Assembly: GCA_003599415.1 (NCBI GenBank)
Contig: QZKB01000047.1
Coordinates: forward strand, 1,832-65,831
Origin: Ignavibacteriales bacterium
GTDB lineage: Bacteria; Bacteroidota; Ignavibacteria; Ignavibacteriales; SURF-24
Length of the DNA: 64,000 nt
Direction: 5' to 3'
Below, in pieces: positions 1,964 through 58,508 of the stretch. The notes under the pieces were generated by a model. It made no database searches and was not told the origin of the DNA. It was given only the letters and a program-made list of their open reading frames with translations. The translations under genes were made by a program, and so were the position numbers. The first letter of the stretch is position 1. Every line of letters starts with the position of its first letter.

Positions 1964-3262
1964 ATGAAGTATAAAATTTTTCTGCTATTCTTGCTTACTG
2001 GTGGATTAGGAATTTGTCAATGGATCGAGCAGAACAGCGGCACCACGACTGATTTGTATGAAGTTTGTTTTACAGATTCTCTAAATGGTTTTGCATTGGG
2101 AAAATCAATTTTACTTCATACTACAGATGGTGGAAATAATTGGAGTTTTCAAAATTATTCATTTCAAAGCATAACTAAAATAAATGCTTATGATAAAAAT
2201 ATCGCAATCATAACTGGTGATTCTGAAGTTGTTTACATTACAAGAAATGGTGGTAAAAACTGGATAACATCCCGCACCGGATATCCTTATCACTATCACC
2301 ATTCTTCCTTTCTTAATGATAGTACCATTTATATTACAGGAACAATTCAAAAAGAATTTTATGGAGGGGGACTTATTTTAAGATCAACTGATTATGGCAT
2401 TAGTTGGGATAAATTGTATCAGACTAAATATGGAGTTGATCCAATTCCCTACTGGATTGATGATTTGTTTTTTACAAGTATCGATACAGGATACGCAATA
2501 TTCCACATTTCATTTGATAACTTTGGTCCAAACTATTTTATGAAAACTACAAATGGAGGTTATAGTTGGCTTCAAATAAGTGAAACACCCGGAATGGTTC
2601 TTGATCTTGAAAATAAAGATAATATCATATGGGCTAAAGCTGCTGGATTCAATTTTTCTACGGATTTTGGATTAACCTGGCAAATTGCTAATATCGCTTA
2701 CTGGGCAATATTGGATATGCATATTATAAAAGATAACTATGGTCTTTTTCTTATTTATGAATATTATGAAGATGCAATGAATAATAGATCAAAGTTAAGG
2801 TTTGCAGACATAACAGATAGTCTTTTTTACACCGTTTCCCTTCCTGATAGTTTTGTCGCCTATTCTTTTTCTTATGTAAATGAAAGGAATATTTGGTTAT
2901 GTGGTAAAGATGGAAAGATATTTAAATACAATACAACACCAGTTAATGTTATAGAAATTAATTCGGTTGAGACTATCTCTCTTTCCCAAAACTTCCCTAA
3001 TCCGTTTAACCCTGTTACAAAAATAAAATATACCATCCCTACCTCACCCCAGCCCTCTCCTTACCAAGGAGAGGGAGTAAGGGTGAGGTTGAAGGTTTAT
3101 GATATCCTCGGTAACGAGGTTGCTACTCTTGTAAATAAGGAGCAACCTACCGGAGAACATGAAGTTGAGTTCAATGCGAATAATCTTTCAAGCGGAATTT
3201 ATTTTTACGTACTTAATTTTGGCAATCAAAGGTTAAGTAAAAAGATGTGTTTGATAAAATAA
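1964..3262 (+). CDS. BNR/Asp-box (Ycf48-like) beta-propeller protein, T9SS cargo
   Basis: Signal peptide. Repeated SxDxGxxW-like motifs (TTDGGNNW, TRNGGKNW, STDYGISW, TTNGGYSW, STDFGLTW). T9SS tail 'NFPNPFNPVTKIKY...GIYFYVLNF...KMCLIK'. RBS-like GAGGGG upstream. Confidence 0.7.
   Translation: MKYKIFLLFLLTGGLGICQWIEQNSGTTTDLYEVCFTDSLNGFALGKSILLHTTDGGNNWSFQNYSFQSITKINAYDKNIAIITGDSEVVYITRNGGKNWITSRTGYPYHYHHSSFLNDSTIYITGTIQKEFYGGGLILRSTDYGISWDKLYQTKYGVDPIPYWIDDLFFTSIDTGYAIFHISFDNFGPNYFMKTTNGGYSWLQISETPGMVLDLENKDNIIWAKAAGFNFSTDFGLTWQIANIAYWAILDMHIIKDNYGLFLIYEYYEDAMNNRSKLRFADITDSLFYTVSLPDSFVAYSFSYVNERNIWLCGKDGKIFKYNTTPVNVIEINSVETISLSQNFPNPFNPVTKIKYTIPTSPQPSPYQGEGVRVRLKVYDILGNEVATLVNKEQPTGEHEVEFNANNLSSGIYFYVLNFGNQRLSKKMCLIK
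3041..3089. repeat. GC-rich imperfect palindrome, family 1, in frame inside a T9SS sorting domain
   Basis: ACCTCACCC-cag-CCCTCTCC-ttaccaa-GGAGAGGG-agtaa-GGGTGAGGT. The outer and inner arms are exact reverse complements. Translated as TSPQPSPYQGEGVR. Confidence 0.85.
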
Positions 3263-3271
3263 AGGGGAAAA

Positions 3272-5200
3272 ATGCTAAGATTTATTTGGATCTGTTTAAT
3301 CGTTTTTACAAGTGTTCTTTTTGCACAGGATGAAAAGGAGCTACAGGATTTACGAGGACTTGAAGATAGCTTAAACAATACTCATCTGTTTTACAGGATA
3401 TATGAGTTAGATAGAAACAGTATGGGTTCAATTAACTATGGATTAAATCCAGTATATCATCTTGACTTAAACAGCAAAACAGATACTTTATTTTTTATAG
3501 GTGTTGACAATGAACCTGTCGGATACTTTGAATCTATTTATGATTATGACTTCTGGAATAATGATCCTTCCAAATATATTTGCTGCGGTACTTACGGTGG
3601 ATTTGACGCAAGTGCATTCATTAAAAGATTTGACGGAGAGAAGATTTCAAATTGGAATGGACACTCACCCAAGATAAACATATCAAGACAAAATGATAGT
3701 TTAGTTTATGCCAACATTTGGAATCTCGTAACAATAAAAAGTTTTGATGGCGGAAGAAACTGGATAACATTACAAAAACAATTAGATTCTTCAGCTGGTA
3801 TAATTGCACTATCTCCTTTTAATGATAACTATTTATTTGCAATCAAAAACTCTTTTAATATTTATGCTTCTTCAGACGGAGGAGCAACTTATATTGATGC
3901 CGGCATTAAGACTAATGATAAAAGTAAATTTTATTTTGATTCTGATTCCAATCATGTTTACGCGCTTATTTGTCAAAGTGATTATGGCGATTCACCTGAT
4001 ATATGGTACCTGTTGGTTTCTGATGGACAGCCTGAGTTTTATTCATTTAAGAATAAATACTTTTTCGGACCAACTTATGATAAAATCCTTTTAGCGATTG
4101 ATGATTCCAGGTCAGGCAACCTATACGCCGCCATCAGAAACAGGATTTATAAATCAGAGGACTACGGAAATACCTTTTCTTTATATAAAACAATGCAAAG
4201 AAAGGTTACCGGCATTTATAAGAAACCCAATTCCGGTTTACTATACGTAATGACGAAATATAACATCCAGGAAATTTCTGATGATACTGTTAAAGTAATA
4301 AAGCAACTACAACCTTCTTTAGAATTTTTTAAATACTATCCATTGGCTGTTGGAAATAAATGGCTTTATTATGGTGAGTACAATAATTGGATTCATCCTC
4401 GCCAGTTTAGAGTACAACGTGAAATAACAGATTTTGTAAAGAAAAATAATGGTAATACCTATTTTGAAATAACTGAAAGCAGCGATATAGAAGAATTTCA
4501 AAATATCTATTATGAAAGAGTTGACTCAGCAACCTGCAATATATTTAGATACAATGCAGATTCAGTTAACTCCAATTCTGAATATATAATTGATGATCCT
4601 ACAATTGATTTAGGTGATACAGTAAAAAGTTTTAGGTTTCCTGATAGAGACAATTATACACTTCCGGTTTTTATATCTGATAGTGATACGAATTTGTTTA
4701 ATCAGTCCAGTCATTTAATCAATTTCATATACGGTAAGATAACAACCTGGTCATACTCACTTGCTAAGAATTTCGGAATTAAGTATGTAGCAAGTGGAAA
4801 CGACACCAGGTTTTATAATTGTAGTCTGATTGGAGCTTTAATAAATGGCGTTATATACGGCGATTCATCCGTAGTTAGCGTAAATGAAGATAAAAATTCT
4901 GCTATTACTTTTTCTCTTGCCCAAAACTTCCCTAACCCGTTTAACCCAACTACAAAAATAAAATATACAATCCCCATAGGGACGAGGCATTCCGCCGCAG
5001 GCGGATCGTCTCTACAAAATGTACAATTGAAAGTTTATGATATCCTTGGTAATGAGGTAGCAACTCTTGTAAACGAAGAAAAACCTGCCGGCGAATATGA
5101 AGTTGAATTAGATGGAAGCAAACTATCAAGTGGAATTTATTTTTATGTACTTAATTTCGGCAACCAAAGGTTAAGTAAAAAGATGTGTCTGATAAAGTGA
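3272..5200 (+). CDS. Asp-box repeat secreted protein, T9SS cargo
   Basis: Signal peptide. Asp-box-like motifs SFDGGRNW, SSDGGATY, SEDYGNTF. The T9SS tail ends in the same 'GIYFYVLNFGNQRLSKKMCLIK' as the upstream gene. Confidence 0.65.
   Translation: MLRFIWICLIVFTSVLFAQDEKELQDLRGLEDSLNNTHLFYRIYELDRNSMGSINYGLNPVYHLDLNSKTDTLFFIGVDNEPVGYFESIYDYDFWNNDPSKYICCGTYGGFDASAFIKRFDGEKISNWNGHSPKINISRQNDSLVYANIWNLVTIKSFDGGRNWITLQKQLDSSAGIIALSPFNDNYLFAIKNSFNIYASSDGGATYIDAGIKTNDKSKFYFDSDSNHVYALICQSDYGDSPDIWYLLVSDGQPEFYSFKNKYFFGPTYDKILLAIDDSRSGNLYAAIRNRIYKSEDYGNTFSLYKTMQRKVTGIYKKPNSGLLYVMTKYNIQEISDDTVKVIKQLQPSLEFFKYYPLAVGNKWLYYGEYNNWIHPRQFRVQREITDFVKKNNGNTYFEITESSDIEEFQNIYYERVDSATCNIFRYNADSVNSNSEYIIDDPTIDLGDTVKSFRFPDRDNYTLPVFISDSDTNLFNQSSHLINFIYGKITTWSYSLAKNFGIKYVASGNDTRFYNCSLIGALINGVIYGDSSVVSVNEDKNSAITFSLAQNFPNPFNPTTKIKYTIPIGTRHSAAGGSSLQNVQLKVYDILGNEVATLVNEEKPAGEYEVELDGSKLSSGIYFYVLNFGNQRLSKKMCLIK
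4977..5014. repeat. GC-rich palindrome, family 2 (long form), in frame inside a T9SS sorting domain
   Basis: TAGGGACGA-ggcatt-CCGCC-gca-GGCGG-a-TCGTCTCTA, with nested stems (one G-T pair in the outer stem). Translated as IGTRHSAAGGSSLQ. Confidence 0.8.
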
Positions 5201-5209
5201 GAGGTGGGT

Positions 5210-7522
5210 ATGAAAAAGATTTTAATATTTTTATGGCTGCCATTTATATTGAACGCTCAATGGATAAAACAGGAAAGCTACACTACAGAAAATCTGACAG
5301 ATGTTGTAATGCTTGATTCTGTTACAGCAGTTGCTGTTGGCCAGGGGCGCTCAATTTTAAGAACCAGTGACGCAGGTAAGACATGGAAGAACCTTACAAT
5401 TATGCTGTCGTCAGTGGTTCCATGGAATGGAGTTGCATTTGCAGATTCTTTAAACGGTGTAGTTGTTGGTGAAAATCAAATAAGGTTTTCATCTGATGGT
5501 GGTAGATTATGGAAGGTAAATACCCCACCCTACCGCAGAAAATTTCTGTCTGCTTTATATCCATTTCCGGGATTTATTTATGTCGGTGCTGATTCAGGTT
5601 GGATTTTTCATTCAACTGATACAGGAAAAACATGGTCCGCACAACAGATTGACAGCACTTCAATACGTGCTATATTTGCCTGGTTTAATGGTCCAACTGA
5701 ATGGATTCAAATTTTTGCTTTAACTCCAATCACTTTATATACAAGCTGGATGGTTACATCTTATCCATGGGAAAAAACTAATCTTCAGGTACAAGGACTT
5801 GGCTCAGAAATTTTTGATGGAGAATTCAGCCGCGATGGTAAGATAGGATATGTGGTTGGTGTTCAGGGAGATAAATGGCTGCAACCAAGAATATCCCGGC
5901 TAAAATTATTTGATACATCATGGACATCAATTGCGAACGGAATTACAGTTTCAGGAATTTTGCATGGTGTATCTGCACCATCTGAAAAGACTGTTTACAC
6001 CTGCGGAACAAACGGATTAATATTTAATTCAACTGATGGCGGAGAGAACTGGCAGAAGTACGATACACCTACCAGCCAAAAGCTTAATTCAATATCATTC
6101 TGTAATAACTCTGTTGGAATGGCAGTTGGAGATTCAGGAGTAATATTTTATACTTCCAACGGCGGAGTAATTCCGGAAATAACTGGTACGCTGATTCCAT
6201 ACGGCTTACAGGATAAAGTAATTACTTCACTGGCAGCAGAAGAATTAGATTACGGAGACAATTTATACATTGGCACAAATTGTCTTTTTGCAGGAACGGA
6301 TAAAGACGGTATTTTCAAAACAGATCCGTTAAGTAAACTGACAGAATGGACGCCGCTTGGACTAACAGGTAAATATATTAATGCTTTAAGTGTACAGTGC
6401 TGGGGCAGAGGTCCGGCAGAAGGATTGAAATTATTTGCGGCTGTTACTCCAAAATTTGAAGATAGTGATTCAACGCTGATCTATCAGAGAGAAGGATTTT
6501 TTACATCTGATACAATTTGGGCAGCTCTTGATAGTGGAATTGTTAAAACGAATACTTTAGTTAATGCAATCAACGCTTTTTATTATTCTGGTCATACTCC
6601 ACCGGGAAATATTTTAGCTGGTGCAAATTCAGGAATCTATAATTACAAAGTTGATTTCTGGGAGCAGGTAAATAACGATGCAAGTATATCTGATATTGAT
6701 GTATATCCGCATTGGTTTGGAAATTTAGTTTGGGCAACAGGAAATTACGGACGCGGTCCGTCAGCATTTAAATCTACTAACCGGGGAGAAACATGGAACC
6801 AGATATTTATACCTCATCCTCTTGATGGAAGTTCGTCTTCCGTTTGCATTAATACGCGCTACCCTGATTCAGTTTATTTTGCTGTTAATGGTTCAATCTA
6901 TCTTTCTCCTGATAGTGGAGCTACAATTAATGAAATATTTGCAAGCGCTCAGGGAAGTATCAAAGTAGTAGGGCTTGATCCATTAAAACCTGAAAATATT
7001 TATGCAGGCGGTTCAGCAGCACAAGGCGATTATTATTTTTGCAACAGTACAGATGGCGGAAAAACCTGGACTAGAGTTGAATCCTTTTTTAGCAGACCAA
7101 TTAAAAATATTACCTCAATTTCTGTTGTCAATAATCCATCCGGCAATGCTTTAGTTTTCCTCGGTACTGAAGGGACAGGTGTATGGTGTTACACATCTCC
7201 AGTGACAACTAATATCAAACCAGTTAAAATTATTCCGGAAGAATTTCGGCTGTACCAGAATTATCCTAACCCGCTTAACCCAACCACAAAAATAAAATAT
7301 TCCATCCCCGTAGAGACGTTGCGCGCATCGTCTCTACAAAATGTTACTTTGAAAATTTATGATATTCTTGGTAATGAAGTAGCTACTCTTGTAAACGAAG
7401 AACAACCTGCCGGAGAATATGAAGTTGAGTTAGATGGAAATAAACTAACGAGCGGAATATATTTCTATCAACTGAAAGTTGGAAGTTATATTTTAACAAA
7501 AAAAATGTGCTTAATAAAGTGA
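5210..7522 (+). CDS. Multi-propeller BNR/Asp-box (Ycf48-like) protein, T9SS cargo
   Basis: Motifs TSDAGKTW, SSDGGRLW, STDTGKTW, STDGGENW, STNRGETW, STDGGKTW. T9SS tail '...KMCLIK'. I prefer the ATG at 5210 (GAGG 6 nt upstream) over the GTG at 5204 given in the ORF track. Confidence 0.7.
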   Translation: MKKILIFLWLPFILNAQWIKQESYTTENLTDVVMLDSVTAVAVGQGRSILRTSDAGKTWKNLTIMLSSVVPWNGVAFADSLNGVVVGENQIRFSSDGGRLWKVNTPPYRRKFLSALYPFPGFIYVGADSGWIFHSTDTGKTWSAQQIDSTSIRAIFAWFNGPTEWIQIFALTPITLYTSWMVTSYPWEKTNLQVQGLGSEIFDGEFSRDGKIGYVVGVQGDKWLQPRISRLKLFDTSWTSIANGITVSGILHGVSAPSEKTVYTCGTNGLIFNSTDGGENWQKYDTPTSQKLNSISFCNNSVGMAVGDSGVIFYTSNGGVIPEITGTLIPYGLQDKVITSLAAEELDYGDNLYIGTNCLFAGTDKDGIFKTDPLSKLTEWTPLGLTGKYINALSVQCWGRGPAEGLKLFAAVTPKFEDSDSTLIYQREGFFTSDTIWAALDSGIVKTNTLVNAINAFYYSGHTPPGNILAGANSGIYNYKVDFWEQVNNDASISDIDVYPHWFGNLVWATGNYGRGPSAFKSTNRGETWNQIFIPHPLDGSSSSVCINTRYPDSVYFAVNGSIYLSPDSGATINEIFASAQGSIKVVGLDPLKPENIYAGGSAAQGDYYFCNSTDGGKTWTRVESFFSRPIKNITSISVVNNPSGNALVFLGTEGTGVWCYTSPVTTNIKPVKIIPEEFRLYQNYPNPLNPTTKIKYSIPVETLRASSLQNVTLKIYDILGNEVATLVNEEQPAGEYEVELDGNKLTSGIYFYQLKVGSYILTKKMCLIK
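7310..7337. repeat. GC-rich palindrome, family 2 (short form), in frame inside a T9SS sorting domain
   Basis: GTAGAGACG-ttgcgcgcat-CGTCTCTAC, a perfect 9-bp stem. Translated as VETLRASSLQ. Confidence 0.85.
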
Positions 7523-7593: not shown

Positions 7594-10500
7594 ATGAAAC
7601 AGTTAATGTTGCTTTGGATGTTGATAATTTTAATAGCATTTAGTGCTATTTCTTATTCTCAATCCAATATTAGAACATGGACAGAAACCACAGTCCAGGA
7701 TTTTTCCGATGATCAACTTTTGAATTTAGTGATCACTAATAATTCGGGTGGTGAAGTACAATTTGCACATCCATTAATAAAAATTACCGAAGATAATATT
7801 GATAATTCAGTTCACCGTTTTATTGAAAGAGATAGTTCTGGAAGTTTTGTAAGAGCCCGGTTTCAAAGTGGAAATGTATATTTAGATAAATATTCTGAAG
7901 ATGGAAGATCACTTCTTAATTCAGTTCAGGTAAATGAACAAGGTGAAAACCCACATAATGACTACGATATCAAGGTTGCAATACTTAAGGATGGAATTTC
8001 GATTGTAATTTGGAGATGCACTAATTTTTATTGGTATGGTCAGATTTTTTCAAAACTGCTTACTAAAGTCGGTTCAAGTTTTAGGCTAAACGAGAGTGTC
8101 TCAGAATATCAGGCTTGTGTTTTCGCAGATAATGCCAACCACTCCTTTGGAATAATATACAGCCTAAATCTTACGACTAATTATAAACTTTTCTTTCAGA
8201 AAAGAGATTCTTCGGGAAATAAAACAACTGAAAGTGTTTATCTGAATCCTGATTATATAACAAAATATGAATTCGGTCCAACAGCTGTTAGTGATGATAA
8301 AGGCTTCTGGGTTGCCTGGGATGGTGCTGATGGAAATAGTACTTATGATTCAGATTTGTACATGCGTCGGTATACTTTTAATGGTGAACCTATTGGCAAC
8401 GCTTTTATCGTCAATGATAATTTACTAATGTTGCAAGGTGGAGCAGATTTAGCAATTGATAGTAATTCAAATCTTTTTGTTGTATGGATAGACGAAAGAG
8501 ATGGTATAGAACCAATAACTTCTGGACAATTAAATATCTATGGTCAAATTTTTAATTCTGACGGAATTAAAATTGGAAGTAATTTGAAACTCAATTCATT
8601 TGGAAACAGAAAAGAAAATACTTTACCAGATGTTGATTATAATAATGGAGAATATAAAGTTTCATGGCGCTACTGGGATGAAACCTACAGACGTTATTTA
8701 ATTCTAAAAAATTCTTGGAGGTTAGAGCCGAAAGATTATGGTGAGATAAAATCATCCATTTTTATGACGGATCCCAATGGTTCAAAATTCAATAAAATTT
8801 TTTGGAAACATAATAATTCTAATCAAGCACAAATAAAATTTAAATTAAGAACAGGAAAGACTCTTGATGATTTAGAAGAATCTCCTTGGTACGGCCCAAC
8901 AGATACACTAGGATTTTATACTAATTCAGTAGGAGAAAATATTTATGATAAACATTATGGTGATAATTATATTCAGTATAAAGCGTATCTGTATAGAGAC
9001 TCTAATTCTTCTCCCCAATTAAATGAGGTCTCAATAACCTACTCAGTTACTGATACGATCAGCCCCTCAGAGCCAACAAATTTACTTGCCACATCTAATC
9101 ATTCAGCTATTAAATTAAGCTGGGATAAAAATAAAGAAAATGATCTGATGGCATATAACATTTATAGAAGAACTGAAGGTGAAAATTATAATGAAGATAA
9201 CAAATTTATAGTTCAAAGACATGAATTGAGTTTTATTGATGTAAGTGCTACAACAGGTATAGTGTACTTTTATGTCATAGTTGCAATTGATTCAGCGGGC
9301 AATAAAAGCGACTATTCTAATGAAGTTTATGCTGAATCCTTTGGTTTATGTATTTATGTTAGTGAAAATGGGCAATCAATTGGAGAAGGGACAATAGATA
9401 AACCTTTTAGAACAATAGAAGAAGGCATGAAAAATGCCTTTTATGGAGATACAATTAAAATTTTACCGGGTAGTTATAAAGATCCCTTTACAATGAAAGA
9501 AGGAATTTCTCTGATAGGCTCAAATGCAGAAGAATGTAAGATCAACGTTTTAGTTGAAGCTTCCAATGAATCTCTGATTCAAGGATTGACTTTTACAAAA
9601 TCCATAAGATGTAGTTCAGCTTCTCCAATAATAACGGAAAATATTTTTAAAGGTGCATTTGATTCATATTCCCCAGCTATTTATTTGGAATTTTCATCAA
9701 ACCCGGTAATTAGTAAGAATTTTATAACTGATTGTGATAATGGCATTATTATTTATAATAGTAAACCTGCCATTCAAAATAATATTATACTTGTAAATTC
9801 TGTTGGAATAAATTTAGAGTCATCAGCAACAATTATTAATAATACAATAATTGCAAATAGATTTGCTGCACTGAATTTAAATTCACCCGAAAAATCAGTT
9901 ATTGAGAATAATATTCTTGTTACACTTGATGAAAATGCTATTGCATATCCGCGGTCAAATCCCGATAACAATTTAACAGTCTTCAATAACTTTTGGAATA
10001 AATACAAAACAAATACTATTGTTTCTTCGTTGAATACATTTCTGGATCCACAATTTGTAAATATAGATTTACAAGATTATCATCTTTCAGAAACTTCACC
10101 TTGTAAAAATGCTGGTCACCCAAATGTAACTTATAATGATGCAGACGGCTCCAGAAACGATCTGGGAGCTTATGGAGGTCCTGATCCAATAAATGGATCA
10201 TTATCTTCATCGTTAATAAGATCAATTTATGTTTCCTCACAATCTGGTTATCCGGGAGATACCGTATCAGTTTATATTAGCTTAGATAAAATTGTTGGTT
10301 TGGCAAAGGCAGAATTTGTACTTGAATATGATAATTCAATTTTAGAATTTCAAAGAGCAGAGTTGACGCAGGCTACAAAAGACTTTGTTCTTTCATATAG
10401 CTTAAGATCTCAAAAAGAAATTTGGTTTTCTTTATCTAATTCTACCCCACTAAATGAATTAAATAAAAACGTATTACTGTTAAAATTTGTTGTTAATCCG

Positions 10501-12450: not shown

Positions 12451-14442
12451 ATGAAAACTGTTTTAACATTTGTATTGGTTTTATTATCAAGCATAATTAA
12501 TATTGCTGCGGAAGAGATTTTATACGTTCAGTTCTCTGCAGATACAGTAAAAATCTGGAATAAGACTGAACTAAATTGCTGCTCATTAATAAGGTTTGAT
12601 GTTGAAGTCAGCGAAAACAAAATTAAACTTGTTGAAGTGGATACAGCTAAAAACTGGTGTTACTGTGACTGTAAATTTAATCTCTGCGCCTCATTAACCG
12701 GATTAACACCCGGCAGTTATAAAGTTGATGTTTACAGAAACTTGCCTATAATATATCCAAAAGATTCTCTAATCTTCATTGGCTCGTTGGAGTTCATTTA
12801 TCCAAACAACTTAATAACAGGCTCGTATCAAAGTAAATGTTTAAATCTGACAAAGAGCAATAGTGATAACTTTAATACTGATTCATTGTATATAGAGTTT
12901 GCTGGAGATACTGTAAAAATCTGGGATGCAAATGCTGAAGAAAACTGTTGCGCATTATTCAAAATGGAAGCAGATGTTGATAACACAAACATATTTATAA
13001 CTGAAGTAGACACAACTGCAGATCTATGTAACTGTATTTGTAAATTTAATCTATGCACTATATTAGTTGGATTACAACCGGGACATTATCGTGCAGATAT
13101 TTACAGGTCTCATCCAAAAATTTGGAGTGATACATCCATCTTTATCGGCAGCATTGATTTTGATTATGGACTACGAACTTATTCAACAATAAAGGTGAAA
13201 TCTTACCAAAGCGAATGCTTGAATGAAACAGAAGAAGTAATTTATTCAAACTCATTTGAAACATCGCAGGATACAGTTGGCTGGCAGGGTATTATGGATT
13301 TCAGAAATGATGCTCCTGTAAACGGAGGAAGTCGCTCACTCTTTATTTCGGATGGTTGTATTATTCCTCATGCCTGGGTAAACGCAGTTACAATTGCTGA
13401 AGAAGGTTTATACAGCTTACGATGCTGGGGAAAAAATTTAATGCTTGGCGGGACAATTTATTTACAGGTTGGCAGCCGTAGTCTCGACCGTAGCTACATT
13501 CAGATCGTGGATACTTCATGGACATTTTATGTTAGTCCGGATACACTACTTTGCGTCGAAGGTGACACATTATTGTTAGCAATGTATTCCGGTGGGCTAA
13601 TTCAGAGTGCAATGCTTGTTGACAAAATTGAAATTGCCAGAATAGGAACTCCTGAAGGTCATACTGCAAAATATTGGAAAGACAAAAGTTATTCTTCTGT
13701 TGAAAGATTCTTATCCGGTGCAAAGATTCAGCATATATCTGCCGATAATGTAAATCTTAATGGTGAAGCATTGAGATGGAAGTTCAGGTTTTCAAGATTT
13801 ATAAATGAGAGTTATCCCCTGGAATATATTTACTTGCATAGTAATTATAATGATGTGGTGTACGACAGCATTTCAACTCTACCTTTAGTTGGTGGTCAGA
13901 ATATCATTGATGAATGGATAGACAGTGATGCTGCTATTGAAAAAGCTGAATTGCTTGGTGGCAGTACTTTCAGAAATGATTACCCTGATTATGTTATTAA
14001 CGCCGGGCTTTATCAGGCTTTGGTACCTGATTCATATCCTATTTGGGAGATTATTTCTAAATCACAAAGTGATCCCACTAAAAAACTATCTCTTATTATT
14101 GATGCACGGGATTTAAATACCTGGAATGATCCTGATGATAATTATCCGAAGGAATTTTCTCTTTCTCAAAACTACCCTAACCCGTTTAATCCAACCACAA
14201 AAATAAAATATTCTATTCCTACCTCACCCCAGCCCTCTCCTTACAAAGGAGAGGGAGCAAGGGTGAGGTTAAAGGTATATGATATTTTAGGTAATGAAGT
14301 TGCTACTCTTGTAAATGAAGAACAACCTGCCGGAGAATATGAGGTTGAGTTGGATGGAAGCAAATTTTCAAGCGGGATTTATTTCTATCAACTGAAAGTT
14401 GGAAATTTTATTGAGACAAAAAAATTACTGCTCCTTAAATAG
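12451..14442 (+). CDS. Secreted protein with tandem Cys-rich N-terminal repeats, T9SS cargo
   Basis: Signal peptide. Two repeats of about 100 aa share 'GDTVKIW...NCC..F......I...EVDT....C.C.CKFNLC....GL.PG.Y..D.YR'. T9SS tail 'NYPNPFNPTTKIKY...GIYFYQLKVG'. Confidence 0.6.
   Translation: MKTVLTFVLVLLSSIINIAAEEILYVQFSADTVKIWNKTELNCCSLIRFDVEVSENKIKLVEVDTAKNWCYCDCKFNLCASLTGLTPGSYKVDVYRNLPIIYPKDSLIFIGSLEFIYPNNLITGSYQSKCLNLTKSNSDNFNTDSLYIEFAGDTVKIWDANAEENCCALFKMEADVDNTNIFITEVDTTADLCNCICKFNLCTILVGLQPGHYRADIYRSHPKIWSDTSIFIGSIDFDYGLRTYSTIKVKSYQSECLNETEEVIYSNSFETSQDTVGWQGIMDFRNDAPVNGGSRSLFISDGCIIPHAWVNAVTIAEEGLYSLRCWGKNLMLGGTIYLQVGSRSLDRSYIQIVDTSWTFYVSPDTLLCVEGDTLLLAMYSGGLIQSAMLVDKIEIARIGTPEGHTAKYWKDKSYSSVERFLSGAKIQHISADNVNLNGEALRWKFRFSRFINESYPLEYIYLHSNYNDVVYDSISTLPLVGGQNIIDEWIDSDAAIEKAELLGGSTFRNDYPDYVINAGLYQALVPDSYPIWEIISKSQSDPTKKLSLIIDARDLNTWNDPDDNYPKEFSLSQNYPNPFNPTTKIKYSIPTSPQPSPYKGEGARVRLKVYDILGNEVATLVNEEQPAGEYEVELDGSKFSSGIYFYQLKVGNFIETKKLLLLK
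14221..14269. repeat. GC-rich imperfect palindrome, family 1 (second copy), in frame inside a T9SS sorting domain
   Basis: Differs from 3041-3089 at 2 of 49 nt (my hand alignment). Translated as TSPQPSPYKGEGAR. Confidence 0.85.
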
Positions 14443-16389: not shown

Positions 16390-16401
16390 TTTAGCAAGCA
16401 A

Positions 16402-16421
16402 GGGTGAGAGAATTCTCACCC
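16402..16421. terminator. Bidirectional intrinsic terminator between convergent genes
   Basis: GGGTGAGA-gaat-TCTCACCC followed by TCTTTTATTT. It lies between the stop at 16389 (+) and the stop at 16439 (-). Confidence 0.6.
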
Positions 16422-16438
16422 TCTTTTATTTCTGATTA

Positions 16439-43143: not shown

Positions 43144-43175
43144 TCCCCTCTCATCATAGAGAGGGGAATATTTTT
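43144..43175 (+). terminator. Intrinsic terminator after trpB2
   Basis: TCCCCTCTC-atcata-GAGAGGGGA followed by ATATTTTT. Confidence 0.75.
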
Positions 43176-44636: not shown

Positions 44637-45155
44637 ATGACAGACATTTCTATCCGCGAAGACAAAAAAGAAATTCTGAATTTCAAAATTGACCTGATTA
44701 ACAAAAGGCACCAGGAAGGTTCGCTTATTACCTTGCTTCAGTCTGCACAGGATTCATACGGTTATGTACCGGAGAAAGTAATTCATTATATAAGCGAACT
44801 TGTTGGAATTCCGTCATCGGAAATTTATGGTGTGCTAACATTCTATTCGCAATTCAGGTTAAAGCCGATGGGAAAAAATATAATAAGGATTTGCGAAGGA
44901 ACAGCCTGCCACGTTAACGGCGCAAAAACGGTTCTATCTGTTCTGCAGGATGAACTTGGGATTTCCGTTGATGAAACTACTGATGATGGTTTATTTACAC
45001 TTCAGTCTGTTGCCTGCCTTGGCTGCTGCTCCCTTGCACCCGTTATGATGATTAACCAGGAAACTCACGGTAACCTTACGACAGAAAAAATTAAAAAAGT
45101 AATTAAGAGTTACAAATCCAACCAACACGCAGGAGTTACAAATGAAAAAAATTAA
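44637..45155 (+). CDS. NuoE/HydC-like [2Fe-2S] thioredoxin-fold subunit
   Basis: Cys pattern 'CEGTACHVNG...CLGCCSLAP'. Confidence 0.8.
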   Translation: MTDISIREDKKEILNFKIDLINKRHQEGSLITLLQSAQDSYGYVPEKVIHYISELVGIPSSEIYGVLTFYSQFRLKPMGKNIIRICEGTACHVNGAKTVLSVLQDELGISVDETTDDGLFTLQSVACLGCCSLAPVMMINQETHGNLTTEKIKKVIKSYKSNQHAGVTNEKN

Positions 45156-46905
45156 AGTTGGACTTGGTACCTGTGGTGTTTCTGCCGGCGGAGAATTAGT
45201 TTATAATAAACTCAAGCAGTCAATCAGTGAATTAAATCTTGATGTTGAATTAAGCGAAACCGGTTGTATGGGAATGTGTTATGAAGAAGCTCTTGTGGAA
45301 ATTGAAGACGACAATGATAAATATCTTTACTCAAAAGTTTCTGTTGATAAAGTTGGCAGAATAATTAACGAACACATAATAAACAATCAACCCATCAACG
45401 ATTGGATTATTAAAAGCAGCCAGGTTTCCAAAGAAGAATCTTTCTTAAAACACCAGACAAGAATTGTTTTAAGAAACTGCGGGGAAATTAATCCTTCTTC
45501 AATTGATGATTACATTGCAAAGAACGGCTACAATGCAATTCAAAAAGTTTTAAATGAATATTCCCAGCAGGATGTAATTGAGATTGTAACCAAATCCGGT
45601 TTACGCGGAAGAGGCGGCGCCGGCTTTGCTACAGGAATGAAATGGAAATTTGCAAATCAATCCGTGGCAGATAAAAAATATATTATCTGCAATGCAGATG
45701 AAGGCGACCCCGGCGCATTTATGGACAGAAGCGTGCTTGAAGGAGATCCTCATTCTGTATTGGAAGGAATGATGATTGCCGGCTACACTATTGGCGCCGA
45801 TGAAGGAATAATTTACGCAAGAGCAGAATATCCTCTTGCAATTAAAAGATTAAAAAACGCTTTGCAGCAATGCAGGCAAAAAGGAATTCTTGGTAAAAAT
45901 ATTTTCGGCACTTCTTTCAGTTTCGATATTAGAATTAAAGAAGGAGCCGGTGCTTTTGTATGCGGTGAAGAAACTGCACTTATGGCATCTGTAGAAGGGA
46001 GAAGAGGAATCCCCCGGATTCGTCCTCCCTTTCCTGCAGTTAGCGGTTTGTGGGGCAAACCAACCAACATTAACAATGTAGAAACTAATGCTAATGTTCC
46101 ATGGATAATCTTAAACGGCTGGCAAGCTTTTGCTTCAATGGGCACAGAGAAAAGTAAGGGCTCAAAAGTTTTTGCACTTGCAGGAAAAATTAAAAGAAGC
46201 GGTTTAATTGAAGTGCCGATGGGTATGACGATAAATCAAATTGTGTTTGATGTCGGCGGTGGAATTAAAAACGACAGAAAATTTAAAGCCGTTCAGATTG
46301 GCGGTCCTTCAGGCGGCTGCATACCTGCTTCAATGGGAGATTTAAGAATTGATTATGATGAGATCGTTAAAACAGGAGCCATCGTTGGCTCTGGTGGTTT
46401 AATTGTTCTGGATGATACAACCTGTATGGTTGATCTTGCACGATACTTCTTAAATTTCACCCAGCTTGAGTCCTGCGGCAAATGTACATTCTGCAGAATT
46501 GGAACTAAGCGAATGCTTGAAATTCTTGAAAGAATAACTGAAGGGCATGGAAAAGAATCTGATATTGATTTACTTGAGAATCTTGCAATGCAAATTAAAA
46601 GTGCAAGCTTGTGCGGATTAGGGCAATCGGCGCCAAATCCTGTTTTAACAACAATAAAATATTTCCGAGAAGAATACGAAGAACACATTCTTAATAAACG
46701 ATGCCCGACTCATTCCTGCTCATCATTAATTACTTACAACATAATTGAAGAGAAGTGTAAAGGCTGCGGCGTATGCATAAAAGCGTGCCCAACCGGTGCA
46801 ATTACAGGCAAGAAGAAAGAATTGCATTACATAAACTATGAACTGTGTATTAAGTGCGGCAAATGTTATGAATCCTGCCGGCTTGACGCAGTTGAAAAAA
46901 TATAA
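45142..46905 (+). CDS. NuoF/HydB-like FMN- and NAD(H)-binding subunit with extra Fe-S domains
   Basis: 'GRGGAGFATGMKWKF'. 'ESCGKCTFCR' N3-cluster motif. N-terminal thioredoxin-like [2Fe-2S] domain. C-terminal 2x[4Fe-4S] ('CKGCGVCIKACP', 'CIKCGKCYESC'). Confidence 0.8.
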   Translation: MKKIKVGLGTCGVSAGGELVYNKLKQSISELNLDVELSETGCMGMCYEEALVEIEDDNDKYLYSKVSVDKVGRIINEHIINNQPINDWIIKSSQVSKEESFLKHQTRIVLRNCGEINPSSIDDYIAKNGYNAIQKVLNEYSQQDVIEIVTKSGLRGRGGAGFATGMKWKFANQSVADKKYIICNADEGDPGAFMDRSVLEGDPHSVLEGMMIAGYTIGADEGIIYARAEYPLAIKRLKNALQQCRQKGILGKNIFGTSFSFDIRIKEGAGAFVCGEETALMASVEGRRGIPRIRPPFPAVSGLWGKPTNINNVETNANVPWIILNGWQAFASMGTEKSKGSKVFALAGKIKRSGLIEVPMGMTINQIVFDVGGGIKNDRKFKAVQIGGPSGGCIPASMGDLRIDYDEIVKTGAIVGSGGLIVLDDTTCMVDLARYFLNFTQLESCGKCTFCRIGTKRMLEILERITEGHGKESDIDLLENLAMQIKSASLCGLGQSAPNPVLTTIKYFREEYEEHILNKRCPTHSCSSLITYNIIEEKCKGCGVCIKACPTGAITGKKKELHYINYELCIKCGKCYESCRLDAVEKI

Positions 46906-55433: not shown

Positions 55434-58400
55434 CTATTTAAGCAGAATTAATTTCCTTGTCTGAGCATAACTTCCGGCTTTTAGCTGGTAAAAGTAAATT
55501 CCGCTTGTCAGCATACTTCCTCCGCCTTCGGCGGACAGTTCTACTTCATATTCTCCTGCAGGTTGTTCTTCGTCCACGAGAGTTGCAACTTCATTACCAA
55601 GAATGTCATAGACTTTTAATGTAACAACTTGTAGAGACTGTCCGCCTGCGGTGGAATACCCTGTCTCTGCGAGTGGAATTGTATATTTTATTTTGGTAAC
55701 CGGATTAAATGGATTCGGATAATTCTGGTAAAGTTTAAATTCAGTTGGATTGGCATCTCGGTTTACGGATTCAACTTCCGTTAATGTTGAGTTTATGTAT
55801 CCTGGTGTACCATATTTGCCTGCAGCAGAAATCCAGTTACCCGGTAAATCATTATCAAGCATCGGAGCTTTCAGTTCTAATGTTGCACCGGTACCGTCAG
55901 CCTCAACGGGCCAGGAGAATTTATTATCGTAATGAACTGAATCGATAAGAAAACCATTAGAAGAATACAATCTTACAACTTCACCTTTATTATTTAGCCC
56001 GTAACCGAAATTACCTGTCTTATTCCTTACTAACGTAAAACAAGAATTGAACGAACTGGTATCTTTGCAAATAACTAAAAAATTTCTGCATCCAATCTTA
56101 GTGCCTTCAGGAAAAATAAAAGGAGACTCATCATTTTCATCTTTCAATATCCAGCCAGACAGGTTAACAAGCGTATCTTTCCTGTTGTATAACTCAATCC
56201 AATCTTCGCTATTGAATAAACCTGATGAGTTATAATTAATTTCGTTTATAATGATAAGGTTACTATCGCTGAACACTTCCTCTTCAAAGTAAGCAATTAG
56301 CAAAGAATCTTTGTCGGGTATAATTTGTAAGCACGAATTGTAAATTGTTGAATCACCATGCCTCCAGTATAAAAACCTGTAACCAAAGTAAGGCACGGCT
56401 TCAACAGTAAAAGGAATTCCTTTAAAGTATTTTCCTTTCAAACCAGGTTCGGGTATCTGCCAATTGAAAAATTTTAATTTACCAGCTTCCGTAATATTAG
56501 ATGAGATTGTAATACTAACAGTGTCACTTATTTTAAAATACTCCATCATATGTTTCCAGGAATAGTTCTGTCTTTCTCCAGCAAACTCTCTAAGTTCTTC
56601 AACATTCTCATTCCACTCCTCAACAGAATTAAATGTTGGTTCTGGAGTCCATCCAACCTCACTAAAATCGGGATCTACTTTACCGCCCCATTTGGTTATA
56701 TGTCTTGGAATTTCTTTGGCAATTATATTCTGCAGGCTATCGATATATTGAATTACATTACCAGGTTCAAAAAGCGTATTCATTAAATAAGTATAGCTCT
56801 GGATAAATTTATTTTTAAATTCTTTGTTCATTAATAATCTTCTGAACAGCAGGTTTGACCATGGTGGATTGGGCCAGCTTGGTCCGTTAGATGCTGCAGC
56901 AACAGCAATTGAATTTGTAGTTGTATAAATAAAAACCTGGTCCATATCGTAATTAATCCAGCGCCATTTTTTATAATTACCCGAGTTTGCTTTCCAGTAT
57001 CTTATGTTATTTCCAGGCCAGTCTCTTTCCGCAAGATAGATATGACCTATTTGATAGTTAATATACTGATCAACATCCATAAGTGTTTTAACATATTCAT
57101 AATGAATAGTCTGAGCCATGTCCTTGGATCTGACATAGTTCAGCATATTATTATATGCAGTGGCAGTACCGGCAATAATGTTTGCATTCCTTTCCAGCAG
57201 ATCAACTTCACTTGCCGGAACATTAAAATTCTCTTCAAAATAATGTTCATTAATTTTTTCCCTTATGTTGTGAATGCCCCAGTATTCTCCGTTTAGAAAA
57301 ACTACGGCAGGCCGAAATGCCTGGTAATCAATATCAAGTTCTTTTGACAGAATAGTGTGAGCCAACCCATCACGGAACATTGTAAAGACCTGGTCATCAG
57401 AAGAGCTTCGCAATAAAACGGATTCGAATTTATCAATATTCTTATCAGCAAAAAATTTATATTCAAATGAACCTTTACCGTAATCGCTTCGAGCAAACAG
57501 CGCCAGAGATTTTTGCGGGTATCTTGTACGCGAACAGCCGCCGAAAATTTTTATTCCAGCCAACTGATTAATTCTCTGTTCACCCGTTGATTCATAAAAC
57601 TCAAAATTAACCGGGCGTTCCCAGTCCTGGTTTACATTACGAATTTTGGGATCGCATTCGCCGTAAGTGCCGTTTGTTCCGGTAACATAAATTCCGATCT
57701 TATCATCAAAAAAGTTATCCGGGTCCGTTACAATAGAAACGACAGGAAGATTAATCTCTTCATTAATAAAATAAGTTTGCGTTACAACTTCGCTTGGAAC
57801 CATTCCTTCTGAAAATGCTTTTGCTCTTATTGCAGTAGTTGAATCCAGTTCTATTGGTTTAGTATAAAGTTCGGATGAATCATCAGGCGGAGTACCGTCT
57901 GTGGTAAACCTGATTCCCGCAGACGAATCGTTTGAGGATAAAGTTAATTGCTGATGTCCTTTATAAAATCCTCCTTTCAATGAAAAATCCGGTTCTTTAG
58001 TGAATCCATTAATATATTCTGCACTATTTATTTTTAACGGCGTTGGATGAGAGAAATATCCCCAGGAATTAATATCACCCTGAAGCCTGCCAAAAGACAT
58101 ATCATTTTTCTGCAGCCCGAATGTTATTGAATCAACCACATTACCGGAAGGATCGTACAATCCAATATATTCTCCATCCTTATCAAGTTTGAAATTTGTA
58201 TGTAGAAGAGTATCTCTGCCGTCAGCCCAGAATATTTTAGCATTTACTGAACCAATGAGTGAATGATCCGGGATTTTCCATTTGTAAGGATTTGCCGCAT
58301 CATCGGTTAAATAATACCCGGAAATATCAATTACTACCTGATTGAAATTTACTATTTCAATCCAGTCACTATACTCGGAAAAATCAAAGCTGACATTTGT

Positions 58401-58508
58401 AGAAGTGTTGGAAGCAAGAATCTCGTTGATATAAACTTTTGAAACCTGTGCGGTGCAGGTTTCCATAAGAATCCAAATACAATACAATAAAACAGATTTC
58501 GGTTTCAT
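55434..58508 (-). CDS. CotH-family protein flanked by lamin-tail (LTD) domains, T9SS cargo
   Basis: LTD-like 'VYINEILASN...DWIEIVNF...ISGYYLTDD' and 'IINEINYNS...DWIELYNR...LSGWILKDE'. CotH-like core ('GGCSRTRYPQKSL', 'FLNGEYWGIHNIREK'). T9SS tail. Confidence 0.65.
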   Translation of the reverse strand: MKPKSVLLYCIWILMETCTAQVSKVYINEILASNTSTNVSFDFSEYSDWIEIVNFNQVVIDISGYYLTDDAANPYKWKIPDHSLIGSVNAKIFWADGRDTLLHTNFKLDKDGEYIGLYDPSGNVVDSITFGLQKNDMSFGRLQGDINSWGYFSHPTPLKINSAEYINGFTKEPDFSLKGGFYKGHQQLTLSSNDSSAGIRFTTDGTPPDDSSELYTKPIELDSTTAIRAKAFSEGMVPSEVVTQTYFINEEINLPVVSIVTDPDNFFDDKIGIYVTGTNGTYGECDPKIRNVNQDWERPVNFEFYESTGEQRINQLAGIKIFGGCSRTRYPQKSLALFARSDYGKGSFEYKFFADKNIDKFESVLLRSSSDDQVFTMFRDGLAHTILSKELDIDYQAFRPAVVFLNGEYWGIHNIREKINEHYFEENFNVPASEVDLLERNANIIAGTATAYNNMLNYVRSKDMAQTIHYEYVKTLMDVDQYINYQIGHIYLAERDWPGNNIRYWKANSGNYKKWRWINYDMDQVFIYTTTNSIAVAAASNGPSWPNPPWSNLLFRRLLMNKEFKNKFIQSYTYLMNTLFEPGNVIQYIDSLQNIIAKEIPRHITKWGGKVDPDFSEVGWTPEPTFNSVEEWNENVEELREFAGERQNYSWKHMMEYFKISDTVSITISSNITEAGKLKFFNWQIPEPGLKGKYFKGIPFTVEAVPYFGYRFLYWRHGDSTIYNSCLQIIPDKDSLLIAYFEEEVFSDSNLIIINEINYNSSGLFNSEDWIELYNRKDTLVNLSGWILKDENDESPFIFPEGTKIGCRNFLVICKDTSSFNSCFTLVRNKTGNFGYGLNNKGEVVRLYSSNGFLIDSVHYDNKFSWPVEADGTGATLELKAPMLDNDLPGNWISAAGKYGTPGYINSTLTEVESVNRDANPTEFKLYQNYPNPFNPVTKIKYTIPLAETGYSTAGGQSLQVVTLKVYDILGNEVATLVDEEQPAGEYEVELSAEGGGSMLTSGIYFYQLKAGSYAQTRKLILLK
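55631..55670. repeat. GC-rich palindrome, family 2 (long form), in frame inside the CotH gene's T9SS sorting domain
   Basis: Coding-strand sequence GCAGAGACAGGGTATTCCACCGCAGGCGGACAGTCTCTAC matches the 4975-5014 segment (the 4977-5014 copy plus flanking bases) at 31 of 40 positions (hand alignment). Translated as AETGYSTAGGQSLQ. Confidence 0.8.

Follow-up and report, generated by a model that had tools for sequence, protein, structure and literature searches.

The window analysed here, a stretch of 64,000 nucleotides (nt) from an Ignavibacteriales bacterium (contig QZKB01000047.1, positions 1,832 to 65,831 of the forward strand), encodes nine tails of the T9SS (type IX secretion system) type. 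Type A C-terminal domains (CTDs) are T9SS secretion signals, which are cleaved off after export. Between strands one and two of the CTD, the connecting turn is short in four of the nine tails, contains a 49-nt palindrome (family 1) in two, and contains a different GC-rich palindrome (family 2) in the remaining three; in the tail alignment the insert position is identical, between '...IKY.IP' and 'V.LKVYD'. The three family-2 palindromes are one nearly intact and two decayed copies of a double-foot GTAG repetitive extragenic palindrome (REP). Their hosts are the open reading frame (ORF) at 3272-5200 (CTD at 4898..5200, forward strand; Por_Secre_tail 40.3 bits; tail alignment), ORF 5204-7522 (CTD at 7232..7522, forward strand; Por_Secre_tail 39.3 bits; AlphaFold2 model) and the CotH-family ORF 55434-58508 (CTD at 55434..55751, reverse strand; CotH 158 bits, Por_Secre_tail 29.9 bits; tail alignment), the Pfam cut-off for Por_Secre_tail (PF18962) being 27 bits. 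Protein P0121, from a 73.6-kb contig of the Joint Genome Institute (JGI), is 100% identical to the CotH protein of the window.

The short form, a 28-nt double-foot GTAG REP (7310..7337, forward strand), reads GTAGAGACG-TTGCGCGCAT-CGTCTCTAC, in the general layout GTAGAGACG-N10-CGTCTCTAC, and contributes the peptide VETLRASSLQ to the tail of ORF 5204-7522. Its outer stem of 9 bp is perfect, as an earlier note on this DNA had it; one T.T mismatch lies further inward (13 of 14 symmetric pairs), and the RNA fold reaches -15.4 kcal/mol (z -4.63 versus shuffles). The long form (4976..5015, forward strand), a 40-nt REP-derived palindrome in the tail of ORF 3272-5200, is composed of ATAGGGACG-AGGCATT-CCGCCGCAGGCGG-AT-CGTCTCTAC, is translated as IGTRHSAAGGSSLQ, and folds at -20.9 kcal/mol (z -4.85). 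It ends in ATAG...CTAC, with ATAG as a degenerate left foot; the AGGCATT of its left half equals the inner sequence of the 29-mer REP variant AGGCATTGCCT, and its apex is predicted to form a nested mini-hairpin, TCCGCC-GCA-GGCGGA (4991..5005, forward strand). The third copy, a degraded long form in the tail of the CotH gene (55631..55670, reverse strand), reads GCAGAGACAGGGTATTCCACCGCAGGCGGACAGTCTCTAC in coding sense, is translated as AETGYSTAGGQSLQ, and has kept CTAC with a degenerate left foot (GCAG); its fold is no better than that of shuffles (z only -1.16). The sequences of all three agree with the earlier transcription, and the claim that they lie in frame at the same T9SS-tail loop is upheld by sequence, ORFs and tail alignment. 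The identity of 31 of 40 positions reported between the CotH copy and the first copy stands, as a by-eye count, with the latter taken at 4976-5015; the register given in the earlier note, 4975-5014, is one base off and yields 8 of 40 as written.

The inserts have a GC content of 57-63%, against 34-37% in their flanks and 34.9% in the window, and none of 200 shuffles folds as well as the copies at 4976-5015 and 7310-7337. The 9-mer arm alone occurs in the window at chance level. What sets the palindromes apart from chance is their pairing, their GC contrast, the position that all three have in common and the abundance of copies in other loci. The covariance models of Rfam 15 gave no match at the gathering score across the whole window, and literature on the raw 9-mers concerned primers and cloning sites only. 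Several other classes of element were considered and rejected: an intrinsic terminator (the site lies inside an ORF whose stop codon comes about 190 nt later, and no T-run follows it), a CRISPR repeat (single copies without an array), an end of an IS200/IS605 insertion sequence (no tnpA or tnpB nearby), and the CGTC-tagged REPs of Di Nocera et al., which have an unpaired terminal CGTC tag and a CCA tail, whereas here CGTC lies inside the stem.

The host ORFs run uninterrupted through the inserts and Por_Secre_tail is still detected, with a lowered Pfam score, although the turn has grown to 11-16 residues from the canonical 3-4. In the AlphaFold2 model of ORF 5204-7522 (low-confidence N-terminal part left out), residues 271-280 (VETLRASSLQ) connect strands 262-269 and 280-288; the insert block has a mean confidence of 66 within a CTD at pLDDT 85-97, the fold of which is retained. 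A turn of 3-4 residues is present in 82 of the 99 parsable homologue tails of this ORF and in 46 of 51 CotH homologue tails, the 16-residue CotH insert being shared only by a 79% orthologue. Full-length orthologues of ORF 5204-7522 at 43-49% identity have the turns KESN, KESE and KEAN, and an 89% orthologue has VETLRATSLQ. Overall, empty sites are found in full-length orthologues of 43-54% identity (4-residue turns in P0002, P0003 and P0005; 3-4 residues in P0123-P0128), versus inserts in the close orthologues P0001, L121 and P0122 (79-89%). Since homologues normally have a 3-4-residue turn, the palindromes of the window are, on this comparative evidence, insertions into CTD-coding DNA.

A scan of one genome per species with the pattern GTAGAGACG-N0-30-CGTCTCTAC returned at least 120 loci. 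The matches listed comprise 133 copies, 91 of 28 nt and 32 of 29 nt (123 of 133), against a chance expectation that we put at about 270 matches in the entire collection, with equal shares for each of the 31 spacer lengths; the peak at 28-29 nt thus shows a real family. Hosts among the matches listed are Nostoc, Calothrix, Chloroflexota, Bacteroidales, Flavobacterium, Hymenobacter, Rhodothermales, Geobacter, Acidobacteria, Spirochaetales, Ignavibacteriales and Melioribacteraceae, and many host groups of the element are without a T9SS. The inner 10 nt vary from copy to copy yet are palindromic (65 of 90 28-mers perfect, 19 with one mismatch). Most copies lie in short stop-free stretches, those in L003 and in L077, another Ignavibacteriales genome, between genes, and the flanks show a weak T(-1)/A(+1) preference and otherwise no target motif.

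Quentin et al. (2018; PMC6006769) described subclass 2.4 of the REP-associated tyrosine transposases (RAYT/TnpA_REP; HuH motif NH[IFV]H, WQ, YIxNNP), which occurs in Cyanobacteria, Bacteroidetes and a range of further phyla. Its 'double foot' REPs have GT[AG]G as the 5' foot and C[TC]AC as the 3' foot, and include the Table S1 entries GTAGAGACGCACGGCCGTGCGTCTCTAC, GTAGAGACGTTGCATGCAACGTCTCTAC and GTAGAGACAGGGCATTGCCCTGTCTCTAC. The outer 9+9 nt of the copy at 7310-7337 are identical to the first two of these entries, and the third agrees with the CotH copy over the left 16 nt of each (GTAGAGACAGGGCATT in the entry), 14 of these 16 being identical. The short form has the GTAG...CTAC feet and, at 28 nt, the stem of about 12 bp, the 3-4-nt loop, the dyad (13 of 14 pairs symmetric, all of them in L121) and the 27-29-nt length of the class; the other two copies have the right foot only in intact form, and the 40-nt long forms fit the length range only if a nested insertion is assumed. 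Judged by sequence, the family-2 palindromes are thus assigned to a known REP class tied to RAYT/TnpA_REP subclass 2.4, and the earlier view of a hairpin-type DNA element, rather than ordinary loop coding sequence, was correct. In four cyanobacterial copies (L045 1733, L066 1419, L090 882, L112 1472) the element measures 43-46 nt with one arm tandemly repeated, which leaves peptide ghosts such as RVSTINRVSTINRVST and suggests replication slippage within the REP.

Metagenomes were scanned for the REP 20-45 nt downstream of an NPFNP-coding motif, which gave at least 120 loci with at least 122 pattern matches. Among the matches listed, to which the counts in this paragraph refer, 114 lie in frame A within tails that are 60 residues or longer, and the other 8 are short or not tails. 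The gap between NPFNP and the REP takes the in-frame values 22, 25, 28, 31 (79 cases), 34 or 37 nt, and the position of the element varies over five codons among CTD subfamilies. Of the REPs in tails, 108 are 28-mers; the inner part is perfect in 82 of the 114, with CATCGCGATG (29 cases) and AGGCATGCCT (21 cases) as dominant variants, and the middle four residues of the peptide vary with it (HRDA, RHAS, LHAT and others). Only the frame VET...SLQ is used in tails (114:0), compared with 9:5 between the two open frames in other ORFs. Over 40 distinct copies, double-sided changes occur at all five inner pairs (76 cells versus 23.6 in shuffles), and the covariation score is 0.312 versus 0.088 (reached in 0 of 500 shuffles; slid controls at most 0.064). 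The symmetry extends to two central pairs that are unable to form in a hairpin, which points to a DNA-level dyad origin and not to selection for an RNA stem. The earlier note had held that the recurrence at this loop exceeds coincidence, and the at least 114 further T9SS tails confirm this; the presence of the motif in other T9SS tails and in intergenic DNA is likewise established across the metagenome scan and many genomes, and the description of a shared outer stem with a varying inner part finds its counterpart in the strong covariation. Its reading of the inner variation as diversification in place does not hold, as the same variants occur in intergenic copies and in Table S1 of PMC6006769, so that variation is a family-wide REP property.

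Some tails depart from the simple insertion pattern. In a '...IYDITG' CTD subfamily (L124, L128, L143, L184, L198, L240 and similar), the REP peptide does not lengthen the domain: from late strand 1 through the turn into early strand 2, it stands in for the same number of native residues (TTTISFS-VETLHATSLH-IYDITG versus native TTTISFSLPSKSYVSLKVFD). REP copies were also seen at the linker between cargo and CTD, just upstream of the CTD start, and, with one mismatch, in the second CTD loop before SGIYFY (L040 6096, L085 5862, L223 1396); these linker and second-loop copies mark further permissive sites in T9SS proteins.

Comparison among REP-bearing tails shows that the inner-stem variant is only loosely tied to its surroundings. 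At 85-90% flank identity, 63% of tail pairs have unrelated inner stems, and at 65-75% flank identity, 14-38% of pairs have identical ones; proximal and distal flanks differ only weakly in linkage, and gene conversion explains this weak linkage only if tracts are very short. REP-less tails are up to 88% identical to REP-bearing ones, which among themselves have a median of 86%. In L126 and L157 identical immediate flanks enclose wholly different yet perfectly symmetric inner stems. In L178, two neighbouring genes with unrelated cargo have in common a CTD module of about 320 nt (about 92% identical), in which the loop blocks of 36 nt each (7618-7653 and 8788-8823) differ at 24 positions with length preserved; a perfect REP fills one block, and a palindrome of another kind, GTCACTCT...AGAGTGAC, fills the other; the adjacent 36 nt are also more diverged (22% versus 9-10%). 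The window itself contains a mosaic, the tail at 4934, which is similar to the family-1 tail at 2999 (83-84%) in the 5' and 3' parts and to the family-2 tail at 7268 (88%) beside the loop. Two tails of one contig carry the same variant in L197 and, in the case of a rare variant, in L220; contigs of a single metagenome sample likewise tend to have a variant in common. The 114:0 frame use, the mosaic tails and the swapped loop of L178 together argue for few insertions that were spread by CTD-module recombination.

The copies differ in their evolution among orthologues. The short form at 7310-7337 diverges from its L121 orthologue, a perfect palindrome (GTAGAGACGTTGCGCGCAACGTCTCTAC), at 1 of 28 positions (4%), against 12-13% in the flanks, a difference that is not significant. 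The long form at 4976-5015 differs from L121, where the left foot is GTAG, at 13 of 40 positions (32%; flanks 10-17%); in the outer stem, one of the changes is compensatory, one restores pairing and two break it. The CotH copy and its same-length insert in the syntenic orthologue L242 differ at 15 of 40 positions (38%; flanks 25-28%), the pairing being eroded differently in each lineage. The expectation that the hairpin would be kept across orthologues therefore fails for the two long copies, which out-diverge their flanks and lose pairing, an outcome that had been set beforehand as a refutation; selection on a functional hairpin is unsupported, and the long forms behave as decaying relics. 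Nested hairpins are likewise enclosed by 40-49-nt REPs in other tails, for example those of L134, L179 and L209, and the TCCGCC-N3-4-GGCGGA hairpin occurs free-standing in second CTD loops and intergenic DNA, which suggests that the long form is a REP within which a further element is nested.

In the second CTD loop this 15-nt hairpin forms an insert of its own (SAEGG or SAKGG). The CotH tail of the window carries it at 55521..55535 (reverse strand; coding sense TCCGCCGAAGGCGGA, within LSAEGGGS), and it is absent from the orthologue in L242, which has a 12-nt gap; the tail of ORF 3272-5200 has none, and the orthologue in L121 has one (262-276). Further loci are L142 3490/3505/8537/14231, L227, L231 and L192, with intergenic copies in L142.

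RAYT/TnpA_REP proteins of subclass 2.4 are single-strand DNA transposases. Among the matches listed, a RAYT/IS200-like gene lies within a few kb of the palindrome in 8 of 120 genome-scan loci, and in four cases (L001 2951, L020 1893, L083 1250, L114 5209) the REP sits in frame inside a RAYT-like gene of the subclass 2.4 type, just after the HuH motif, in agreement with Quentin et al. (2018). Full-length RAYT-like proteins have 'REP-associated tyrosine transposase' as their best NCBIfam match (E 1e-13 to 1e-18, below the equivalog cut-off), and fragments of HuH proteins gave no match or a borderline Y1_Tnp match in Pfam. At the corresponding spot of the RAYT-like gene of L106 (5611-6447) the peptide 'NPNCVSTT' is possibly the remnant of half a REP. 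Among the matches listed, the sole RAYT-like gene near a REP-bearing T9SS tail is that of L165, 4.5 kb away.

We consider it probable that a REP insertion was tolerated in a disposable signal domain, was spread and exchanged by recombination of CTD modules, and then decayed, the hairpin likely having no function for the host. A REP copy would have entered the DNA for the beta1-beta2 turn of a type A CTD, an event recorded by the empty orthologue sites and the mechanism of which we infer. It would have survived owing to its open frame (GTA GAG ACG ... TCT CTA C, read as VET...SLQ), the solvent exposure of the turn and the removal of the signal domain: as the CTD is cleaved off after export, an insert would only have to spare signal recognition. 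CTD modules exist in many near-identical copies per genome, and module duplication with short-tract gene conversion, in part visible in the tails compared above, would then have spread the insert. Copies would decay by point mutation and gain nested small hairpins, giving rise to the two long forms, and the short form would be a young or recently converted copy. Neutrality is consistent with an insert in a surface turn, with the inserts in the second loop and linker, and with unrelated palindromes in the same turn; the hairpin most likely has no function for the host gene. Several observations weigh against this account. The window contains no intergenic copy of the family-2 palindrome, nor do L121, L242 and L243, and the 646 kb of REP-tail loci hold no REP copy except in T9SS tails; an active REP family in the source organism is thus at most a possibility. 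A motif scan and tblastn detected no RAYT-like gene in the window or in syntenic relatives, and the one near a tail, in L165, has its own in-frame double-foot palindrome (5101-5132) with a different stem, GTAGTGGATACA...TGTATCCACTAC, and is non-cognate. The inner-stem variant depends hardly at all on how closely the flanks are related, and its linkage to the proximal flanks is weak. The exclusive use of one frame could reflect peptide selection rather than descent, and both the higher conservation of the short form relative to its flanks and the equal frequency of perfect dyads in tails (82 of 114) and in the mostly intergenic genome-scan copies could mean maintenance, not neutrality.

Part of this evidence would also follow if the beta1-beta2 turn were a preferred site of integration or cassette exchange, at which a RAYT-type or other hairpin-processing activity swaps palindromes. 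Different perfect inner stems between identical flanks (L126, L157), the independence of inner identity from flanks (63% of the 85-90% pairs unrelated), the at least three unrelated palindrome families in this turn, REP-less tails as close to REP-bearing ones as these are to each other, and the 36-nt loop length kept across the L178 swap all speak for such targeting. We nevertheless regard it as unlikely, as no target motif exists beyond the faint T(-1)/A(+1) preference, the position shifts within a range of five codons from one CTD subfamily to another, one frame is used, which fits descent better than repeated integrations, and the flank divergence in L178 and the mosaic window tails are expected of conversion tracts and not of precise excision and insertion; a RAYT gene near these tails is known only from L165, with its non-cognate palindrome. 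The earlier argument for targeting or selection at the loop is thus sustained as to non-coincidence; targeting is not required, since one-frame use, mosaic tails and the L178 module fit recombination. A wider version, which we find doubtful although conceivable, is that in Ignavibacteria-like genomes the double-foot REP and at least two other GC-rich palindrome families have moved from an extragenic to a coding habitat, almost only the CTD turn, where a process specific to hairpins (a single-strand transposase of the RAYT type or some related activity) swaps whole palindromes as cassettes of unchanged length, so that exchange goes beyond homologous gene conversion. If so, the secretion tail would be a dedicated landing pad and vehicle for palindromes.

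An RNA or DNA stem-loop under selection, for example for ribosome pausing before the CTD, mRNA stability or regulation of T9SS cargo, would account for the strong folding of two copies (z about -4.7), the very strong inner-pair covariation (0 of 500 shuffles), the conserved short form with its perfect L121 orthologue, and the recurrence in at least 114 tails. It is improbable in view of the symmetry at two central positions that cannot pair, the mostly intergenic occurrence of the element, also in phyla without T9SS, the lack of any insert in most homologous tails, the loss of pairing in long copies that out-evolve their flanks, the replacement of unrelated palindromes by one another, and the lack of an Rfam family in the window. 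We give still less weight to selection on the protein, by which VET....SLQ would help, as a loop, in recognising or processing the CTD, and the palindromic DNA would be incidental: the exclusive frame A and the equal-length replacement of the native strand in 'IYDITG' CTDs (...TSLQ/H-IYD) agree with it, but the middle four residues vary freely, other palindromes put unrelated peptides in the same turn, most tails have a turn of 3-4 residues, the insert is modelled at low confidence, and conservation is at the DNA level, identical 28-mers occurring in tails with flanks only 65-75% identical. Palindromes arising by chance or codon usage from ordinary coding sequence have a parallel in the window, a strong hairpin at 45994-46056 that is taken as a coding by-product, and the 9-mer count is what chance predicts; the GC content of 57-63% versus 35%, the identical position in three genes, the 0 of 200 shuffles that fold as well as two of the copies, the fixed-length 28-mer class in hundreds of loci and the empty sites in orthologues effectively refute chance.

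Compared with double-foot GTAG REPs of subclass 2.4 (PMC6006769; group 4 of Bertels), the element of the window has identical outer arms (GTAGAGACG / CGTCTCTAC), a length of 28-29 nt, a GTAG foot with complementary CTAC at the other end, an inner stem that is variable but symmetric, and the same taxonomic spread (Cyanobacteria, Bacteroidetes, scattered phyla). Two inner variants found here appear in Table S1 of that study, and such REPs can sit in frame in a gene, as in tnpA_REP genes. The window copies differ from them in lying in T9SS CTD-coding sequence, in the lack of a tnpA_REP gene and of extragenic copies in the window, and, in two of three cases, in degenerate feet and a nested hairpin. 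REPINs and REPs or bacterial interspersed mosaic elements (BIMEs) with their RAYTs (Nunvar 2010, PMC2817692; Bertels and Rainey 2011, PMC3116915) are likewise GTAG-headed hairpin repeats that tend to have a variant of their own in each genome, presumably mobilised by a domesticated HuH Y1 transposase on single-stranded DNA; REPINs are inverted REP pairs with a spacer, extragenic and mostly from Proteobacteria, whereas the window element is a single symmetric 28-mer in coding sequence.

In-frame intragenic REPs in unrelated genes have already been described (Di Nocera et al. 2013, PMC3733652). As far as the account given there of intragenic REPs and Rickettsia palindromic elements (RPEs; Ogata et al. 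2002, Claverie and Ogata 2003, both via PMC3733652) goes, these are also in-frame palindromes in genes that stay functional, in presumed loops or linkers, with presence or absence among orthologues and nested or multiple inserts. By the same description RPE-4 and RPE-6 are CGTC-tagged with unpaired tails and RPE-1 is longer, which sets them apart from the GTAG-footed element of the window; the Rickettsia inserts described are scattered over unrelated genes, notably of DNA repair, whereas those of the window lie in one turn of one multi-copy domain and, unlike them, appear to spread with their host domain. The resemblance is one of behaviour, and no membership is claimed. As T9SS type A CTDs (PF18962), the three tails pass the gathering threshold and have a predicted beta-sandwich, and differ from the canonical domain in a beta1-beta2 turn of 11-16 instead of 3-4 residues. 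The limited collection of literature searched on T9SS and palindromic or REP insertions, including PMC6006769 and PMC3733652, has no mention of T9SS tails as REP hosts, and recurrent in-frame residence of REPs in the T9SS CTD turn appears unreported. The finding is a new home for a known element and not a new kind of system, an instance of intragenic REP or RPE-like insertion.

For annotation, REP inserts explain odd GC-rich hypervariable stretches in many T9SS sorting domains, and since they lower profile scores (the CotH tail is barely above the Pfam cut-off), some T9SS cargo may be missed. For engineering, they provide a natural map of where a CTD has room for 7-25 extra residues, namely in the beta1-beta2 turn, in the second loop ahead of SGIYFY and in the linker between cargo and CTD, which is useful for designing tagged secretion signals. 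For REP biology, the at least 114 tails represent a large, apparently unreported coding niche, L178 and the window's own tails are natural experiments separating gene conversion from transposase-mediated exchange, and the CTD-coding modules of unrelated genes are seen to evolve in concert.

Other palindromes were noticed in the same material. The family-1 palindrome ACCTCACCCC...GGGTGAGGT, read as TSPQPSPY[KQ]GEG, occupies the same CTD turn at 3041-3089 and 14221-14269 of the window. Its core CCTCTCCTTACCAAGGAGAGG is also found in frame in a different, non-CTD domain of proteins from four metagenome loci (...RTSPLPSPYQGEGGEAGRGWE...; L125 2669, L157 1428, L178 8501, L237 2587), which indicates that family 1 is also a dispersed element and not CTD-specific. 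The strongest hairpin of the window (45994-46056, -33 kcal/mol) lies inside ORF 45142-46905, whose syntenic homologue has Complex1_51K and NADH_4Fe-4S domains; we regard it as a side effect of conserved coding sequence, and it makes a useful negative control. Finally, intergenic GC-rich hairpins at 16400-16425 and 43144-43167 (AGGGTGAGA...TCTCACCCT and TCCCCTCTC...GAGAGGGGA, respectively) have short motifs in common with the family-1 arms and resemble terminators placed between converging genes or at the ends of genes.

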